From the NCBI GenBank assembly GCA_009785175.1, contig WQWV01000001.1:1-58962 (forward strand): 58,962 nucleotides of DNA, in the 5' to 3' direction. The notes below the pieces were generated by a model. The model was not told the DNA's origin. It worked only from the letters and a program-made list of their open reading frames with translations, and did not search any database. Source of the DNA: Alphaproteobacteria bacterium. GTDB lineage: Bacteria; Pseudomonadota; Alphaproteobacteria; Rs-D84; CACZYB01. Made by a program: the position numbers and the translations under genes. Positions 25,409 through 52,985 of the stretch are shown here, one piece after another (within the stretch, counting starts at the first letter, position 1; the number at the start of each line of letters is the position of its first letter).

Positions 25409-25915
25409 CTAGAAATATACGCGGGCTTTGACCAAAGCAGCTTTTATGTATTGAGTATCATCGCCCAAATCAAGCGGGATATAGCGTAATTCTACGCCGC
25501 CGGCTATGGGGAACATTGGTATGTTAAGATCAAGCCCGGCCATATAGGAAAGATTCTCGTGGCTTCCGGAAACCCCGCGCACCTGATAGCTTGCGATGCC
25601 CATGCCGATATATGGTTTCAATATAGGAAGCAGCGGAAGGCCGACCAGCGCGTTCACTCCGATACCCCAGGTCTGCGCACGATCGTCGAAGTTGTATTGC
25701 GCGTATTCAAGCTCGGCACGGATCGGAACCACTGGAATGGGAAGGTCTATACCGGCATACATGGACCACGCTCCGCCCTTGCCCATGTCATAGCGGTCGG
25801 TATCGTCGTGAAGCGAAGCGCGCGACGTTCCGCCCGAACCTCCTATATACTTCCCGAACGCCGACGCATCGGCCGCCGCGAAAACAAGCGCGAACGCAAA
25901 TAGGTAATTTTTCAT
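25409..25915 (-). CDS. small outer-membrane beta-barrel protein (OmpA-like barrel/OmpW-type)
   Basis: Signal peptide, alternating-hydrophobicity strands and a C-terminal aromatic residue (ARVYF). Confidence 0.7.
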   Translation of the reverse strand: MKNYLFAFALVFAAADASAFGKYIGGSGGTSRASLHDDTDRYDMGKGGAWSMYAGIDLPIPVVPIRAELEYAQYNFDDRAQTWGIGVNALVGLPLLPILKPYIGMGIASYQVRGVSGSHENLSYMAGLDLNIPMFPIAGGVELRYIPLDLGDDTQYIKAALVKARVYF

Positions 25916-26021
25916 AATCGTTCCTTTCCTTTGTTTATGATTTGATTATACTCCTTTCCGCCCGGATAAGTCAAGCTTCCTGCACACCCCTTAAATTTAT
26001 CTTTACAAACGGAAACAATAG

Positions 26022-26049
26022 TTGATATCCTAGCAATAGGAATTAAATA
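26022..26049 (+). promoter_or_regulatory. sigma70-type promoter candidate for the 26062 cassette
   Basis: TTGATA, 16 nt, TAAATA. The spacer contains the palindrome CCTAgcaaTAGG. SD AAGGAG lies before the ATG at 26062. Confidence 0.35.
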
Positions 26050-26061
26050 AAAGGAGTCGAC

Positions 26062-26508
26062 ATGCAAGAATGGATATTGGTTAACGCGTGGCTTTGTGCA
26101 GCCGGCTGGTGCGCCGCGACGCTTACGCTTTTGCTTAAAAAGAAGCTTCCCGGCCGCCTGACGGTTCTGACCTTCGGGCTTGTCGGCACGTTCGCCCTGA
26201 CGCTGGTGTGCCTTATGGCCGCGGCGGCCCAGAATACCGAGCTTGTCGCCGGCGGAGTCCTTGCGGCTCTGTCCACAAGCGCATTTGCAGTGGCCCTCGA
26301 GTTCCTAAGGAAAGTTCCCGACGCGGCGCCTGTCGTTGTCGTGGGCGCGACCGCGGACGCCAAAGAGCTTCAAAAGCTTCGCAAAGACACAGAGGCGGCG
26401 ATAAACCTTTTGGGCGAAAACATCACGGACGTGGCGGAACTGCTTGACCGCAATCACAAGAAGCTGGCCAAAAACGCCAAATCCGCCATCGAAGGCAGCG
26501 GTGAATAA
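26062..26508 (+). CDS. minimal MotA/TolQ/ExbB-like three-TM protein with charged helical tail
   Basis: 148 aa with three hydrophobic helices. Helices 2-3 read GLVGTF...AALSTSAFAVALE, resembling the proton-channel family signature. The C-terminal ~60 aa are charged and helical. Confidence 0.5.
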   Translation: MQEWILVNAWLCAAGWCAATLTLLLKKKLPGRLTVLTFGLVGTFALTLVCLMAAAAQNTELVAGGVLAALSTSAFAVALEFLRKVPDAAPVVVVGATADAKELQKLRKDTEAAINLLGENITDVAELLDRNHKKLAKNAKSAIEGSGE

Positions 26509-26509
26509 C

Positions 26510-27193
26510 ATGGTCGCGAAAAATCTTAAATTGAAAAACCTCAAGGAAAAGTTCAAATACGACAGCCTTGGATATTTCCCGGCGGTTGCGGGCATGGCGG
26601 TTGTCGCCGCCCTCGCTCTTGCATTCATATTGGCTGTTCGGCTTGGCGCCGGATGCGAACAACGGGCGGGCGAAATCGTCCGCGTGCGCGTGCAAAAAAG
26701 CCATGATAATATACTGGAGGCCTTCCGCGCGGAGTTCGCCGAAGACGCGGCGAAATGGGGCGCCGTCATCGACGACAGCAGGATTTCCATCTCGTTCGCC
26801 GCAAGCGATATGCTTTTCTGGATCGACTCTTCGGATGTGCGTGAAAACCTAAAGAAAGCGCTTGCCGACTTCTTCCCTCGCTATGTCGCCTTCGCCCGCC
26901 GCTTCCCCGACGAAGTCGATAGCATACAGGTCGAGGGACACACCGATACCACCGGCGATTACCTCTACAACATGAAGCTGTCGCAGGATAGGTCGCGAAA
27001 CGTGCTTGCCCATTGCTTCCGCATAGCGCCCGCAGGCGACCGCGCCTGGCTCGAGGAAAACTTCATGGCCACCGGCGCGTCCTATGCCCGCCCCGCCGCG
27101 AACGACGCCAAATCCCGCCGCGTAGAATTTAACCTCAAGCTCAACCCAAGCAAAATTATCGAAAAAGACACCAAAAAATCGAGGAGGAAATAA
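26510..27193 (+). CDS. MotB/OmpA-like peptidoglycan-binding membrane protein
   Basis: Start ATG is 1 nt after the upstream stop. It has a single TM preceded by Asp (KYDSLGYFPAVAG) and an OmpA-like domain VEGHTDTTGD...NMKLSQDRSRNV...SRRVEFNL. Confidence 0.75.
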   Translation: MVAKNLKLKNLKEKFKYDSLGYFPAVAGMAVVAALALAFILAVRLGAGCEQRAGEIVRVRVQKSHDNILEAFRAEFAEDAAKWGAVIDDSRISISFAASDMLFWIDSSDVRENLKKALADFFPRYVAFARRFPDEVDSIQVEGHTDTTGDYLYNMKLSQDRSRNVLAHCFRIAPAGDRAWLEENFMATGASYARPAANDAKSRRVEFNLKLNPSKIIEKDTKKSRRK

Positions 27194-27194
27194 T

Positions 27195-27713
27195 ATGAAG
27201 ATAGAATTGAACCTTACGTTCATGGATCGCCTCTTGCGCCTCAAACGCTCGCTTGACGGCAACGAAATCAAGATCGAAGCACGTGCCGCCCGCCCCGGCC
27301 TTACGCTAAAGGAAGTGCTCGAGATGCTCGACCGCCGCGAACCGGGCAAGGCGTTGCTGAAAAACGGCCGCTGCAACTTCCTTTGGATTCCCGACTTTGA
27401 TACCAACAAGGGAACCAAGAAGGACGAGGATCCCGACCAATGGAACAAGGTCCACCTGACCTTCTGCGACATACTCCAGAACATGGAGAACGCCGGCCGC
27501 GAAGACCGCTATGAATCAACCGAAAATACAAGCGGCGAGTTCAACTGTATCTATAACGACGATTCGGTTGCCAAGAAAAAGCTGCACGTCTGCAAATACT
27601 GTATCGACGCGATTGAAAACTCCGCGCGCTTCGGCTCCTTCAAACAATTCGACTTCGACGCCTTTGCGAAAGAATACAACTTCGAGGGCATAACCGAAGA
27701 AATTGTAAAATAG
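27195..27713 (+). CDS. hypothetical soluble protein with Cys/His cluster
   Basis: 172 aa, with ATG 1 nt after the upstream stop and SD GAGGAGGA. Carries C60, H87/C91, C118 and H131/C133/C136. No family recognised. Confidence 0.6.
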   Translation: MKIELNLTFMDRLLRLKRSLDGNEIKIEARAARPGLTLKEVLEMLDRREPGKALLKNGRCNFLWIPDFDTNKGTKKDEDPDQWNKVHLTFCDILQNMENAGREDRYESTENTSGEFNCIYNDDSVAKKKLHVCKYCIDAIENSARFGSFKQFDFDAFAKEYNFEGITEEIVK

Positions 27714-27832: not shown

Positions 27833-27860
27833 TTGAAAAAAAAATCAAACGTTTTATAGT
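27833..27860 (+). promoter_or_regulatory. sigma70-type promoter candidate upstream of HTH regulator
   Basis: TTGAAA, 16 nt (including an A9 run), TATAGT. The inverted repeat TTGTC-N7-GACAA at about 27736-27752 is a possible operator. Confidence 0.35.
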
Positions 27861-27885: not shown

Positions 27886-28887
27886 ATGGAAGAAATTATT
27901 TTCCCCAATAAAATACGAATCCTTCGCAAAATGGCCGGCAAATCTATGCAGGAGCTTGCGGACAAACTCGACGTATCGCTTTCTGCGATTTCGAAAATCG
28001 AGAAGGGATATCGCAAGATTAATCAAGAGCAGATGATGGTCGTCTCGGACTTCCTCGGCTGCTCGTTGAATGATATTTTCATATCCGAGGACAAGGACGA
28101 CGAAACGATCTTGAACGCCTGGAAACAGGAAATCGACCGCCGCGTCGACTTGAACGAAAACAAGGGGCTCAAGATCTTCGGCGCCGGCCTAAGGTATATC
28201 CGCTCGGGCAAAAACCTTACGCTTATGGATGTGGCCGAGGCGACCGGCCTGACGCTTTCCATCTACCACCGTATCGAAATCGGTCAGCGCGAAGTCTACG
28301 AGGACGAGCTTGCGGATATCAGCAAGGCGCTCGGCATGAGCTCAAAGGAATTGCTTGGCAAAATCTTCGACCTCAAGAAGAATGGCACGCTTGATAACAT
28401 CATCAACGCCGAAAAACCTGCGGAATCGTCGATCACGAAGCTATCCGACATCATCAAAACGACCGAGTCGGTATACACTCCCGGCGGAGTAGTCAAGTTC
28501 CACAAAGTTCTTTTGCACAGCAAGTCGCTTGAAAACGGCAATATCCTTGTCGACAAAGAAGCGCGCGATAGCTATACGATTTTCCCGATCACCGCGGACA
28601 AGCCCGAAGGTGTCTACGCCGTCGAGCTTTCAAGCCGCCGCCTTGGCACGATCTTGCCCATGCGCTCGATTCTCTTCGTCGATCCGGCACAGCAGGTGCG
28701 CTCGGGCGACCTTGCGGCTCAAATCGTGAAACAAAACGATTCGTCTATGGAAATCAAGCTTATCAGCCTCCGCGAAGACGTCGACGGCAAGTTCTATGCC
28801 GTGTCGTATAACCCGGACGAAAAAGCACCTATCTCCGACGCCGCCATAGCCAAGCTCCACAAGATTGTCCTCGTATCGATGAACTGA
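27886..28887 (+). CDS. XRE-family regulator with two HTH domains and a degenerate S24/LexA-like C-terminal domain
   Basis: ATG at 27886 after AAGGAGA. There are two HTH_3-like segments (IRILRKMAGKSMQELADKLDVS..., LRYIRSGKNLTLMDVAEATGLT...). The C-terminal beta-rich domain resembles the CI/LexA fold but lacks a clear GDSM Ser. Confidence 0.7.
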   Translation: MEEIIFPNKIRILRKMAGKSMQELADKLDVSLSAISKIEKGYRKINQEQMMVVSDFLGCSLNDIFISEDKDDETILNAWKQEIDRRVDLNENKGLKIFGAGLRYIRSGKNLTLMDVAEATGLTLSIYHRIEIGQREVYEDELADISKALGMSSKELLGKIFDLKKNGTLDNIINAEKPAESSITKLSDIIKTTESVYTPGGVVKFHKVLLHSKSLENGNILVDKEARDSYTIFPITADKPEGVYAVELSSRRLGTILPMRSILFVDPAQQVRSGDLAAQIVKQNDSSMEIKLISLREDVDGKFYAVSYNPDEKAPISDAAIAKLHKIVLVSMN

Positions 28888-28912
28888 TCGACACTGGACT
28901 AAGGAGGGGACA

Positions 28913-29689
28913 GTGAGCGACGAGCCGAAACGGAAAATAACATTTGCTGAACAGCAAAAGCACGACAACGACCTCAAGGTCGCGCGGCTTCAGCTTAACA
29001 TTTTCCGCCAGCTCCACGCGATCGACACCCCTCTTGCCGACCTTAACGCCGACTGGCGCGCGCTTGATAACGACGTGGTAGACGCGCTCAACGAGCTCCC
29101 CGGCGGCGCGAAACTATATCAGCATATAAGGAATATGCAGGAGGGCAAAACCGCTTCGGATAAAATCGACGAGGATCTCTTGGCTTTCGGCCGCGAAGTT
29201 TTTACGGATCAGAACAAGTTCAAACGCTATACCAAAACGGACGACCAAATCGAAAAGGAAAAACAGGCGGAAGAGGCGAAAAGCAAATCCGCCGATCCCC
29301 TTCCGACATTCGAGAAAAAGGCCGAAACCGACGATTCCCAATACGCGGATATCTACGCCGCGATCCGCTCGTATTCCAATACTACGAAAGGGCTGCTGGA
29401 GTTCAAGGAAAAGGCCGCCCGCTTCGGCGATAATTGGCGCAGCGAGATCGACACGATTCTTGCTCTTCGCGAAACCGACGACGCCGGCGAGCTTATCGAC
29501 ACGTTCAATAATTTGAAGACCTATGACACCGCGGTTTCCCTTTGGAACGAGGCGGCGGGAATATTGGAAAACCCGACCGCACCCGGCATTGCGGCGATAC
29601 AGGCCAAGATCAAGGAATACAAAACCTATCTCCCGATGTTCGGCGCCTCCGGACACGAGCTTTTGGAAAAACTGAAGGAGCTTAAATAA
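28913..29689 (+). CDS. hypothetical charged helical protein (paralogous C-terminal module shared with next gene)
   Basis: GTG start after AAGGAGGGG. 258 aa with no signal peptide. It ends YLPMFGASGHELLEKLKELK. Confidence 0.55.
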   Translation: MSDEPKRKITFAEQQKHDNDLKVARLQLNIFRQLHAIDTPLADLNADWRALDNDVVDALNELPGGAKLYQHIRNMQEGKTASDKIDEDLLAFGREVFTDQNKFKRYTKTDDQIEKEKQAEEAKSKSADPLPTFEKKAETDDSQYADIYAAIRSYSNTTKGLLEFKEKAARFGDNWRSEIDTILALRETDDAGELIDTFNNLKTYDTAVSLWNEAAGILENPTAPGIAAIQAKIKEYKTYLPMFGASGHELLEKLKELK

Positions 29690-30645
29690 TGAGCGGCCTC
29701 TTCTCGATATTCAAAAAAAAGAATCCCCTCGACGCGACATACGCGGCGCTACTCTCGTTCAAGGGAAACATGGCCACGCTTGGCAAATTAAAAGATGCCG
29801 CTATGCCGATGTTCGGCACCGATTGGGCGCCCGCGCTTGAAACATACATAGCGACCACCACTCCGCCCGATGCCGCCAAACTTATGGCCCAGCTTGAAAA
29901 AGCGCGCGAATACGACAAGGGCCAGACGCTATGGCGCGGTGCGCAAATGCTATTGAACGGCTCGGCACTTCCGATAAATATTGAATCTCAGATGGAGGAT
30001 TTCGAACAATACCTCCCGCTTTTCGGCCCCGACGGCGAAGTGCTGCTTGAAAAACTTAAACTCAAATTCCCGCACCCCGCATCCATAGGCGAACCCAATA
30101 TCCTAAGGAAGGTCGACCTTGCTCCAACTCCACGTCCTCAAAAATCCAACTCGAAGGAGCCTGTGTCCGAATATCCTAAAACGCTCGAGATCAACGAGGA
30201 CGTGATGACCGACTGGGACATACAAAACTTCCTCTATTTGCTCGAGTTCCTGAACCTGGCGAAGCACATCATGCCGATGATAGTCGCGAACGGCGCCGCC
30301 GACAGCCTCGAGGACTATCCCGGATACAACCTCATACTCGACACCTACGACGCGGCCATAGCCAAGGGCGAGAAGCTTTTCGACAAGCCCGAGCAATTAT
30401 TGAACCTAAACTTCGAGCATGGCGCCAAAACGCTGCGTGAAATCCTCGAAACACTTAACGCCGAGCGCGACAACGAGGTCCGCGTCATACCCAAATCTCC
30501 CGAACCGCAAGCCGCCCGCCATGTCCCCTTCCTCGACCTTGACGACGAAGGGGAAGAGGAGGCCGGACCCGCCAAAAAATCGGCCGCCCGCACCCGCAAA
30601 AATTCCTTGCCAGCCAAAAAAAGAAAGGCTAGGATTGAGGCATGA
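29689..30645 (+). CDS. hypothetical protein with repeated P-[ML]-F-G module and Lys/Arg-rich tail
   Basis: TAATG overlap with the upstream gene. Contains AMPMFGTDWAPAL and YLPLFGPDGEVLLEKLKLKF, and the C-terminus is KKSAARTRKNSLPAKKRKARIEA. Confidence 0.55.
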   Translation: MSGLFSIFKKKNPLDATYAALLSFKGNMATLGKLKDAAMPMFGTDWAPALETYIATTTPPDAAKLMAQLEKAREYDKGQTLWRGAQMLLNGSALPINIESQMEDFEQYLPLFGPDGEVLLEKLKLKFPHPASIGEPNILRKVDLAPTPRPQKSNSKEPVSEYPKTLEINEDVMTDWDIQNFLYLLEFLNLAKHIMPMIVANGAADSLEDYPGYNLILDTYDAAIAKGEKLFDKPEQLLNLNFEHGAKTLREILETLNAERDNEVRVIPKSPEPQAARHVPFLDLDDEGEEEAGPAKKSAARTRKNSLPAKKRKARIEA

Positions 30646-31943
30646 GGATTATCGCCACATTATTGATACTAGCGATCGCCGCCTGCCACGGGTCAAGACA
30701 CCCCCGGCGCGACGGCGTGATCATCGACGATACCCCGATCGAACAGACCTCGCAGGCCTTGGCCGTCCCGATAACCCCGCGTGCGGCTATGACTACGCTC
30801 AAGAACGTGCACGAATTCAGCCTCGAGTTCGACAAGCGCTGCTCGGTCGATTGGGAATCCCAAACGATCATATCGAAACAGCCGTTCGACCGCGATACGT
30901 TCAAGCTTGACCGGGTCGACCGCGGCGACCGCCTTCCCGACATCGCAGTAAGGAATTTCTCGTTCAAGGATATGAATGTTTCCGGCGCGCTTGCCAAGGT
31001 GCTTGAAAATACGGAAATCCGCACTGCCACCGACCCGTCGATTCAAAAACGCATTTCTGCGGACGACCTCTCTGGCAACCTGCACACGGTTGTCGAACTT
31101 ATCTGCACCATGGCCGAAGTTTACTGCAGCTATGATTCAAGAAACAAGGTCATAACGGTCCGCAACAACACGAAGTTCATGCTCCACGTCCCGCTTTCCG
31201 ACGATATAATTTTGGCGGTCGAGGACGCGCTTAGGGGCTCTAACATCGACGACATTATCATTGATTGGAATTCCCGCCTCCTATTGTTCACCGGCAACGC
31301 TTATACGGAATCGGTAGTGCGCGAAGTTCTTATGCGCCTTGCCGTCGAGCGCCGACTTATCGCATACGACATCAATATCCTCCGCGTCTACCCGAACGAC
31401 CGCGACGGCATCAAGTGGCAAGAGATGGTCCAGGCGTTCAATAGGAACACGGTCAAGGTTTCCAAACGCGGCGTCATAGGCCGCGCGATGGTGATGACAT
31501 CGAACTTCTCGGCCGGATCCTTGGCCGAATTCCTAAAGCCGCGCGCGAATACGTTCCTTGTAAGTGCGGGTAATTTCATCGTGCCCGAACGCTGGAACGG
31601 CGCGTTCGACATCGGCCGCTGCAACCGCGAACCGACGCTTGAAACCGAACTTAGGATAGTGGCCTCGACCAAGCTCGACTTCTCGATCAACGATCACGGC
31701 GTGTTGATGACCGACATATTCCTTATGACGTCCGACAGGCGCGACATCGCCCGCTATTTCGTATCCTCGACCATCGGGGACAACATACTTATCATCGGCA
31801 TCCCGACGAAATACTTCGGCGACGACGAAGCCGCCAAAAGGAACATTCCCGACAACGCCGAGCTTGTGATATTGATAAGCCCGCGCATTATAAACATAGT
31901 AAGCCCCGATTCCGCCAACACCAATCCCATGCGGCCTAAATGA
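30642..31943 (+). CDS. outer-membrane lipoprotein with secretin-like organisation
   Basis: ATGA overlap upstream. Has a lipobox LAIAAC, N0/STN-like FSFKDMNVSGALAKVLENTEI, the secretin-domain-like stretch IAYDINILRVYPNDRDGIKW, and a terminal ELVILISPRIIN like secretin C-termini. Confidence 0.5.
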   Translation: MRIIATLLILAIAACHGSRHPRRDGVIIDDTPIEQTSQALAVPITPRAAMTTLKNVHEFSLEFDKRCSVDWESQTIISKQPFDRDTFKLDRVDRGDRLPDIAVRNFSFKDMNVSGALAKVLENTEIRTATDPSIQKRISADDLSGNLHTVVELICTMAEVYCSYDSRNKVITVRNNTKFMLHVPLSDDIILAVEDALRGSNIDDIIIDWNSRLLLFTGNAYTESVVREVLMRLAVERRLIAYDINILRVYPNDRDGIKWQEMVQAFNRNTVKVSKRGVIGRAMVMTSNFSAGSLAEFLKPRANTFLVSAGNFIVPERWNGAFDIGRCNREPTLETELRIVASTKLDFSINDHGVLMTDIFLMTSDRRDIARYFVSSTIGDNILIIGIPTKYFGDDEAAKRNIPDNAELVILISPRIINIVSPDSANTNPMRPK

Positions 31944-38378: not shown

Positions 38379-38454
38379 TGGTGGGCGAACGGGGACTCGA
38401 ACCCTGGACCTACTGATTAAGAGTCAGCTGCTCTACCAACTGAGCTATTCGCCC
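38379..38454 (-). tRNA. tRNA-Lys (anticodon CTT)
   Basis: 76-nt cloverleaf read by hand: acceptor GGGCGAA/TTCGCCC, anticodon loop CT-CTT-AA, T-loop GGTTCGAGTCC, and an encoded CCA. Confidence 0.9.
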
Positions 38455-52720: not shown

Positions 52721-52808
52721 TGGCGGAAGGGGGGGGATTCGAACCCCCGGTAGGTTGCCCTACGCACGCTTTCCAAGCGTGTGCATTCGACCACTCTGCC
52801 ACCCTTCC
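52721..52808 (-). tRNA. tRNA-Ser (anticodon GGA)
   Basis: 88 nt: acceptor GGAAGGG/CCCTTCC, anticodon loop TT-GGA-AA, a long variable arm, T-loop TTCGAAT and an encoded CCA. Confidence 0.9.
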
Positions 52809-52911: not shown

Positions 52912-52985
52912 TGGTGCCTCCAGACAGAATCGAACTATCACCTAAGGTTTACAAAACCCTTGCACGACCCTCATGCTATGGAGGC
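52912..52985 (-). tRNA. tRNA-Thr (anticodon TGT)
   Basis: 74 nt: acceptor GCCTCCA/TGGAGGC, anticodon loop TT-TGT-AA, T-loop TTCGATT and an encoded CCA. Confidence 0.8.

Follow-up and report, generated by a model that had tools for sequence, protein, structure and literature searches.

Zorya defence systems of type II act through a membrane complex, ZorAB, which recruits the effector ZorE to the membrane on infection, and ZorE nicks DNA (PMC11890865); in type I Zorya, ZorB and the effector ZorD co-localize less during infection if the tail tip is deleted (PMC11946911). The membrane core of type II ZorA comprises only about 100 residues and is followed by a tail that covers residues 100-378 in S. 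kujiense and 106-550 in E. coli (PMC11890865), and all subtypes are said to have a long ZorA tail (PMC11946911). Both structural papers describe an Asp of ZorB as universally conserved and essential, a D-to-N mutant being dead (PMC11890865; PMC11946911), and a ZorA T147A/S184A double mutant is also dead (PMC11946911). A 2026 preprint describes ZorE as a DUF8245 domain joined to HNHc, sometimes with a C-terminal extension, and its AlphaFold 3 model places ZorE H90 in a zinc site beside DNA, with H90A abolishing defence (PMC13192584). The ZorB Asp, the long ZorA tail and the nuclease effector are all regarded as essential, the loss of any one of them abolishing defence (PMC11890865; PMC11946911; PMC13192584). 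Here, we examine three adjacent open reading frames, ORF1, ORF2 and ORF3 (the triad), at positions 26062-27713 of a 58,962-nucleotide (nt) stretch of DNA (the window, to whose full length all positions refer) from an Alphaproteobacteria bacterium of the Rs-D84 lineage (assembly GCA_009785175.1, contig WQWV01000001.1). A previous sequence-only reading of the window had proposed a Zorya-like A/B pair of unrecognised type, coupled to a soluble Cys/His protein. The pairing is supported by our analysis, however, the type is a recognised one, with ORF2 and ORF3 matching ZorB2 and ZorE models in a PADLOC search. The triad is very likely a drastically reduced derivative of type II Zorya; it is a known kind of system in strongly reduced form and not a categorically new one, and it is kept intact by selection.

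The soluble protein ORF3, for which the sequence-only reading had named no family and seen no resemblance to known Zor partners, in fact matches five PADLOC ZorE models (best ZorE2, 4.2e-19) and the NCBIfam ZorE model (4e-9, model positions 52-146 of 358), and its precomputed annotation is PF26739 (DUF8245). Against the reference E. coli type II locus (NZ_CP127005.1; ZorA2 of 550, ZorB2 of 235 and ZorE of 367 amino acids, aa), BLASTP aligns ORF3 only to ZorE residues 42-171 (1e-8). The HNH motif of that ZorE (CNDC...HVHHKNG...LCKDCH) lies at residues ~208-250, downstream of the ORF3-matching part, and ORF3 ends at the point where the HNH domain of E. coli ZorE starts. An HNH profile found nothing in ORF3 or its orthologues when iterated domain profiles were used, and only the N-terminal domain is present; no nuclease domain was found that would make ORF3 the effector it had been taken for. 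The DUF8245 core of ORF3 spans residues ~46-162 and contains the putative zinc ligands H87, C91, C133 and C136 (H-x3-C...C-x2-C), of which H87 is the equivalent of ZorE H90. Across 33 DUF8245 sequences, I65, H87, C91, F116, L130, C133 and C136 are invariant and Y106 is found in 32, and the Cys and His residues listed earlier for ORF3 (C60, H87, C91, C118, H131, C133 and C136) are all in place. Judged from sequence, ORF3 is DUF8245, the zinc-binding domain with which the Zorya II effector ZorE begins, and lacks the HNH nuclease. When the ORF3 family and a 21-sequence DUF8245 alignment were used as profiles to search the PDB, only chance matches came back. One ORF3 orthologue, P0128 (encoded on a 739-nt ENA contig), carries a Lys/Pro/Ala-rich, histone H1-like insert of ~45 residues between its N-terminal helix and the DUF8245 core, which is consistent with DNA binding.

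ORF2 has a Lys-rich N-terminus, a transmembrane (TM) helix at residues ~22-43 and a periplasmic OmpA-like peptidoglycan-binding domain at ~103-207. The single TM helix and the OmpA/MotB-type domain were already part of the sequence-only reading and are confirmed, the latter by Pfam PF00691 (2.7e-8; 34.5 bits against a gathering cut-off of 27.2), with the peptidoglycan-binding residues intact in EGHTD and NMKLSQDRS (the GHTD and LSxxR motifs). No MotB_plug match was obtained for ORF2. The protein matches PADLOC ZorB2 (PDLC00641) over nearly its full length at 1.3e-39 and ZorB1 models at 7e-34, and NCBIfam ranks ZorB2 first with 92 bits, below the 400-bit equivalog cut-off. Among PDB entries, S. 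kujiense type II ZorB (8vvi_A, 1.9e-16) ranks first and E. coli ZorB (8qyd_F) comes lower in the list, and a profile-profile comparison (hhalign) with 79 ZorBs gave E=1e-60. These matches identify ORF2 as a ZorB2-type protein.

The 148 aa of ORF1 compare with 324-877 aa for the ZorA2 proteins in a survey of 80 metagenomic ZorB loci, which we collected by scanning with a five-sequence ZorB alignment; the shortest complete ZorA proteins of that survey have 324-390 aa, and the A subunit is therefore several-fold shorter than ZorA, as had been noted before. Secondary structure taken from an AlphaFold 2 (AF2) model of low confidence gives helices at residues 2-26, 32-56, 59-83 and 100-145, which agrees with the three hydrophobic helices and the helical tail described earlier, the C-terminal helix having ~45 residues and being joined to the membrane core by a linker of ~15 residues. 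After TM3, ORF1 continues for ~65 residues, whereas no complete ZorA in the survey has fewer than ~200 there. For type II, a core of three helices that lacks a cytoplasmic loop domain is normal, since the ZorA2 core itself has only ~100 residues.

The relationship of ORF1 to ZorA was assessed by profile-profile comparison, with ZorA2 alignments drawn from the same survey. The ORF1 family aligned collinearly with the ZorA2 core plus proximal tail (hhalign score 40.6, P=1.5e-5), whereas 200 segment-preserving column shuffles gave a mean of 14.9 and a maximum of 28. For the core alone (ORF1 residues 12-87 against ZorA2 residues 18-104) P was 3.9e-5, with an hhalign probability for the ZorA2-core match of only 70-80%, and the alignment pairs ORF1 GLVGTF with ZorA2 GILGTF and ALSTS with AFITS. 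The tail helix alone, compared with full-length ZorA2, aligned best with the tip at the very C-terminus (E. coli residues 497-538 of 550; score 37.4, P=1.3e-5), against shuffled controls with a mean of 11.7 and a maximum of 19.2 and a reversed-sequence score of 17.8. A hidden Markov model (HMM) of the ZorA2 tip ranked the orthologue from a second locus, L001 (see below), directly behind all true ZorA2 proteins (E=6.4e-4) and set all three short A proteins (mini-A) in one register, scoring ORF1 of the window at E=3.9 only. The tip motif is AI-x-x-(M/L)G-x-x-L-x-x-(L/I)S-x-x-FV-x-DY-x-PL in type II and A(I/M)N-x-(L/M)GEN(I/F)TDV-x-E-x-L-x-RNHKKL in mini-A. Pairwise BLASTP of ORF1 against E. coli ZorA2 was not significant (E=0.3), its alignment being collinear, and a PDB profile search with the ORF1 family gave chance matches only. 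Because the profile-profile matches to the ZorA2 core and tip far exceed those of the shuffled controls, ORF1 is best read as a putative type II ZorA membrane core joined to the ZorA2 tail tip without the intervening coiled coil of ~200-450 residues. A separate feature of ORF1 is Glu80 (window 26299-26301), which is invariant in the three mini-A proteins and lies near the cytoplasmic end of TM3; its column in ZorA2 is Ile or Leu, leaving it without a counterpart. Glu80 might pair with the Lys/Arg-rich ORF2 N-terminus or replace the missing ZorB charge.

Taken side by side with type II Zorya (E. coli ATCC 8739, NZ_CP127005.1; S. kujiense, 8VVI), the triad repeats the zorA-zorB-zorE order, with all genes on the same strand and hardly any spacing between them. 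Homology of ORF2 to ZorB2 extends across almost the whole protein, OmpA-like domain included. ORF1 shares the tip motif and probably also the N-out three-helix core, with the G-x-x-G-T-F motif of TM2 and the A-x-x-T-S motif of TM3, and ORF3 runs collinear with ZorE over residues 1-175 and agrees with it at the zinc site. However, the coiled-coil tail of ZorA2 (E. coli 550 aa, S. kujiense 378 aa) is absent from ORF1, the periplasmic TM2-TM3 loop is reduced from ~15-20 residues to ~4, the ZorB Asp motif is missing from ORF2, ORF3 (172 aa) has neither the HNH domain nor the C-terminal region of the 367-aa ZorE, and the NCBIfam scores of the triad fall far below the equivalog cut-offs of type II Zorya. 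Type I Zorya (ZorABCD) is also related, with ORF2 ~40% identical to the type I ZorB P0005 of the zorABCD locus L005, but ZorC and ZorD are not in the triad, the type I ZorA core has ~230 residues with a cytoplasmic domain, and its tail tip is unlike that of ORF1. With MotAB, ExbBD, TolQR and PomAB the triad shares a polytopic A and a single-TM B subunit, and with MotB the OmpA-like domain; it differs from them in that ORF1 lacks PF01618 and the triad lacks the conserved Asp, the cytoplasmic loop domain and nearby flagellar, Ton or Tol partner genes. The earlier statement that no Tol, Exb or flagellar locus surrounds the triad is borne out by the gene context.

Standalone DUF8245 proteins were also found in the survey. 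In four groups of loci (L085/L079/L087, L069, L074/L052 and L021) the E protein is likewise DUF8245 without HNH, of 191-263 aa in most, and beyond its own clade ORF3 matches the L021 protein best (6e-14). These loci differ from the triad in that ZorA is still full-length (389-877 aa), the ZorB Asp is still there and an additional downstream gene is present, of which there is none in the window or in L001. Depending on the group, that gene encodes a DUF4846 protein (273 aa), an AAA_13 protein (780 aa), a BrxL-like Lon ATPase (465-467 aa) or a UvrD helicase (692 aa), which suggests modular effector swapping around a DUF8245 adaptor. No published description of these variants was found in the literature searched. 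The L021 E protein combines DUF8245 with ankyrin repeats. Elsewhere in the survey, four loci (L024, L053, L064 and L070) have a complete zorE-like gene with HNH (262-270 aa) directly upstream of zorB, a non-canonical order; these ~265-aa genes had been considered as short ZorA, or mini-A, candidates and were rejected as zorE-like. In L081, otherwise a canonical Zorya II locus (B of 234 aa, E of 283 aa), ZorA is open just over a C-terminal fragment of 145 aa; in the related L083, L090 and L093 ZorA has 701-729 aa, and the L081 fragment is likely a frameshift or pseudogene.

The same triad occurs in the termite-gut Alphaproteobacteria metagenome-assembled genome (MAG) Lab288P3bin38 (locus L001), with A, B and E proteins of 159, 285 and 172 aa that are 44%, 46% and 68% identical to those of the window; Lab288P3 is a bin label that termite-gut MAGs carry (PMC7886697). 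Short contigs add A with the start of B (L006), B with E (L007) and a fourth E protein (P0128), so that conservation of the triad as a unit is seen in full in L001 and in part in one or two more lineages. The family is tiny, at 3-4 lineages. A full HMMER search with ORF1 over 1.84 billion representative proteins returned two orthologue clusters and one spurious match, a word-indexed protein search found only ORF1 itself, and scanning one genome per species with the ORF3 alignment brought up a single genome, the Alphaproteobacteria MAG. No further relatives were found among the 1.84 billion representatives, a 5.8-billion-cluster protein database, 185,579 species genomes and IMG/VR. The ORF1 family evolves fastest (36-49% identity, ORF3 59-68%). 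Synonymous sites are saturated (pS, the proportion of synonymous differences, 0.63-0.75), yet all three ORFs are intact, and apparent ratios of non-synonymous to synonymous substitution (dN/dS, for pairs with a computable dS) are 0.12-0.16 for E, 0.16-0.26 for B and 0.30-0.48 for A. Intact ORFs and low dN/dS despite saturated sites point to purifying selection on the triad, strongest on ORF3. The same ORF1 protein and gene arrangement were found in three independent assemblies, so the triad is not an assembly artefact.

Among the residues associated with motor function, the ZorB Asp motif D-[LMIVF]-[MLFIV]-[ASTG] is present in all 79 surveyed ZorBs that were compared and in none of the three B proteins of the mini clade, whose TM helices hmmalign cannot place on the canonical ZorB profile. 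By MAFFT and hhalign, the canonical Asp column (D21/D24/D26 of ZorB) corresponds to P24 to G28 of ORF2, within a clade-specific FP(A/P)(V/I)A(G/C) motif that reads FPAVAG in ORF2 itself. The Asp previously proposed as the ion relay, D18, does exist; however, it lies 6-10 residues N-terminal of the canonical column and is replaced by Asn in P0004 and by Gly in the L006 protein. Similarly, the MotA-type Thr/Ser signature claimed for ORF1 is there in the window sequence (T43, T72, S73) but is not conserved, P0122 having T, I, S and P0123 A, L, G at these positions. On these alignments the mini clade does not conserve the canonical ion path, and we regard a loss of canonical motor coupling as reasonably probable.

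The explanation that we favour as a whole, with a probability of roughly 0.6, is a reduced zorA-zorB-zorE derivative that works as follows. ORF1 and ORF2 would form an inner-membrane complex anchored to peptidoglycan, like ZorAB, and the short cytoplasmic tip bundle would dock the DUF8245 protein directly beneath the membrane. Since the ion-relay Asp and the filter residues are not conserved, this complex is probably not a canonical ion-driven rotor and more likely a static or conformational envelope sensor. The only part that all E proteins in the survey share is DUF8245, which is fused to HNH in the canonical case; because it is shared in this way and elsewhere stands alone beside full-length ZorAB with varied genes, it is suggested to serve as the adaptor for coupling to ZorAB. 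Exactly this adaptor and the tail tip are what the mini system retains, from which we infer that the ORF1 tip docks ORF3. As the module has no nuclease, its output would have to be the binding or release of ORF3, probably binding to DNA, at the membrane or after release. Most likely, the triad forms a membrane complex that is fixed to peptidoglycan, probably does not rotate, and docks a protein that binds zinc and probably DNA. As to purpose, a defence-related role dependent on host factors in trans is preferred to envelope-to-DNA signalling, however, we put it forward tentatively and at less than even odds. It is doubtful, if conceivable, that the triad is a functional motor-less and nuclease-less Zorya, with neither ion-driven rotation nor a long tail, in which the tip docks a DUF8245 protein that binds DNA to block or flag it or, once released, signals envelope damage.

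Several observations weigh against this explanation. ORF1 has no Pfam family at E<=1, and the PF01618 profile of the MotA/TolQ/ExbB family, to which it had been likened, gives no match; neither does it have a meaningful match in PADLOC, NCBIfam or PHROGs, and it is missed by an HMM built from 27 type II ZorA N-termini. Homology to ZorA rests on the profile-profile scores of a family of three members. The AF2 models are poor, with shallow alignments and predicted local distance difference test values (pLDDT) of 53 for ORF1 and 39 for ORF3, and Foldseek with the ORF1 model found nothing in the PDB at E<=0.001. The window proteins do carry T43, T72 and S73 together with D18 near the membrane edge, and there may be a displaced ion pathway in the window's own lineage. 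The joint loss of tail, Asp and nuclease also resembles a decaying system. Finally, no defence or mobile-element genes adjoin the triad and its GC content matches that of its surroundings, as for a native sequence, and the housekeeping context fits a non-defence role at least equally well.

One alternative is a domesticated Zorya remnant with a function outside defence, for example an envelope-stress or peptidoglycan sensor that holds and releases a zinc-finger DNA-binding regulator in an anti-sigma-like manner. Such a role would suit the native GC content and the housekeeping neighbours, the loss of every feature needed for killing or cutting and the position of ORF3 as the most constrained of the three proteins, and the histone H1-like insert of one ORF3 orthologue suggests DNA binding. 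However, the flanking genes differ in each lineage, as is typical of accessory or defence cassettes and not of a core envelope function, the spread is very sparse (3-4 lineages among ~15 billion proteins) and no target genes or operators have been identified, and we consider this alternative unlikely. Recent horizontal transfer was rejected as there is no GC anomaly.

The stator function that the sequence-only reading assumed for ORF1 and ORF2 is the least supported part of that interpretation. It would make the triad a functional minimal ion-driven 5:2 stator that uses ORF2 D18 and the ORF1 Thr/Ser residues to drive or activate the effector ORF3, and a self-sufficient new defence system. T43 and T72/S73 of the window ORF1 are indeed in register with the GTF and TS motifs of ZorA2, D18 sits at the cytoplasmic edge of the ORF2 TM helix, the peptidoglycan-binding residues are intact and the operon structure is that of Zorya II. 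Nonetheless, D18 is off the canonical column and not conserved, P0123 without both filter residues is the natural counterpart of the dead T147A/S184A double mutant (PMC11946911), ORF3 has no nuclease domain and the TM2-TM3 periplasmic loop, which forms a collar in ZorA, is cut down almost entirely, all of which makes a working stator quite improbable. That the triad is a non-functional relic of a decaying Zorya II locus, as the combined loss of tail, Asp and nuclease and the rapid evolution of the ORF1 family could indicate, is highly improbable given tightly coupled, intact ORFs despite saturated synonymous sites, dN/dS below 0.5, a strongly conserved tail-tip helix, ORF2 TM FP motif and whole ORF3, and the same architecture at similar lengths in independent contexts.

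The locus itself is compact (Table 1). The single-nucleotide spacers described earlier, TAA-c-ATG at 26506-26512 between ORF1 and ORF2 and TAA-t-ATG at 27191-27197 between ORF2 and ORF3, are exact in both coordinates and letters, with other gene callers starting ORF2 at a GTG at 26501 (230 aa). With regard to expression signals, Shine-Dalgarno sequences do precede ORF1 and ORF3 (GAGGAGG, Shine-Dalgarno-like, in the latter case), but the promoter boxes also claimed amount to a weak match, and promoter-like sites in the scanned region (5 vs. 2.5 expected) are weak evidence.

Table 1. Positions of the triad, its signals and neighbours, and of variant loci from the survey (window positions unless preceded by a locus name).
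Feature	Position	Strand	Remarks
Weak sigma-70-like promoter match, TTTACA-18-TATCCT	26002..26031	+	Upstream of ORF1; 9/12 positions
AAGGAG Shine-Dalgarno sequence	~26051-26056	+	Ahead of ORF1
ORF1, mini ZorA2-like subunit, 148 aa	26062..26508	+	Three TM helices, short linker, one cytoplasmic helix
ORF1 tail-tip helix, residues ~100-145	26359..26496	+	Putative equivalent of type II ZorA C-terminal tip
ORF2, ZorB2-like subunit, 227 aa	26510..27193	+	ATG at 26510; one TM helix and OmpA-like domain
ORF3, standalone DUF8245 protein, 172 aa	27195..27713	+	Putative ZorE N-terminal domain equivalent
Radical-SAM protein gene, 321 aa	24299..25264		Two genes upstream of the triad
OMP_b-brl gene, window	25409..25915	-	Upstream, divergent
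OMP_b-brl gene, L001	L001:7490-8233	-	Downstream, convergent
Promoter-like site of the regulator gene	27833..27860		
Regulator gene and three ORFs without family match	27886..31943		333 aa; 258, 318 and 433 aa
tRNA genes	38382-38454, 52724-52808, 52915-52985	-	
Standalone-DUF8245 loci	L085:3327-4732, L079:2920-4328, L087:4751-6159, L069:5660-8816, L074:5616-7807, L052:1578-4405, L021:5636-8879		
zorE-like gene upstream of zorB	L024:1551-3052, L053:1557-3034, L064:1757-3249, L070:1344-2818		HNH present
ZorA C-terminal fragment	L081:2043-2480		145 aa

Genes for OMP_b-brl outer-membrane proteins lie next to the triad in the window and in L001. A beta-barrel protein as fourth component was rejected, the two being 28% identical over 114 residues and on opposite sides, with none in L007, and the adjacency is probably coincidental. 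Downstream of the triad, a dual helix-turn-helix (HTH) regulator of XRE type is followed by three ORFs without a family match, two of which share YLP(M/L)FG-x-x-G-x-x-LLEKLK, and a MacB/FtsX-type ATP-binding cassette (ABC) transporter is encoded directly downstream of these. None of these genes adjoins the triad in L001, and the dual-HTH gene was rejected as a module member on account of its own promoter-like site and its absence from L001. A radical S-adenosylmethionine (radical-SAM) protein gives a weak viperin match (PADLOC pVip, 6.5e-7, 27 bits), which is probably generic radical-SAM similarity. The three tRNA genes are the only Rfam matches in the window above the gathering score.

The triad is a natural, selectively kept relative of Zorya that has neither the ZorB Asp, the long ZorA tail nor the nuclease effector, yet retains the peptidoglycan anchor, the tail tip, DUF8245 and, putatively, the membrane core. 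Because ORF1 matches no PADLOC, NCBIfam or Pfam model, defence finders that work with HMMs and demand a ZorA match would probably miss loci of this kind. The tail tip and DUF8245 are a candidate for the interface by which ZorAB and ZorE recognise each other, and would, if the triad is indeed a functional motor-less and nuclease-less Zorya, together represent the minimal coupling interface of Zorya; at 148 + 227 + 172 aa, the triad also offers a small construct for structural and binding studies. The locus raises the question of what role a Zorya scaffold plays without rotation or cutting. On that same motor-less and nuclease-less reading, it would follow that the 'universal' Asp and the long tail are dispensable in some lineages, and that the parts of Zorya can be repurposed beyond nuclease-based immunity.

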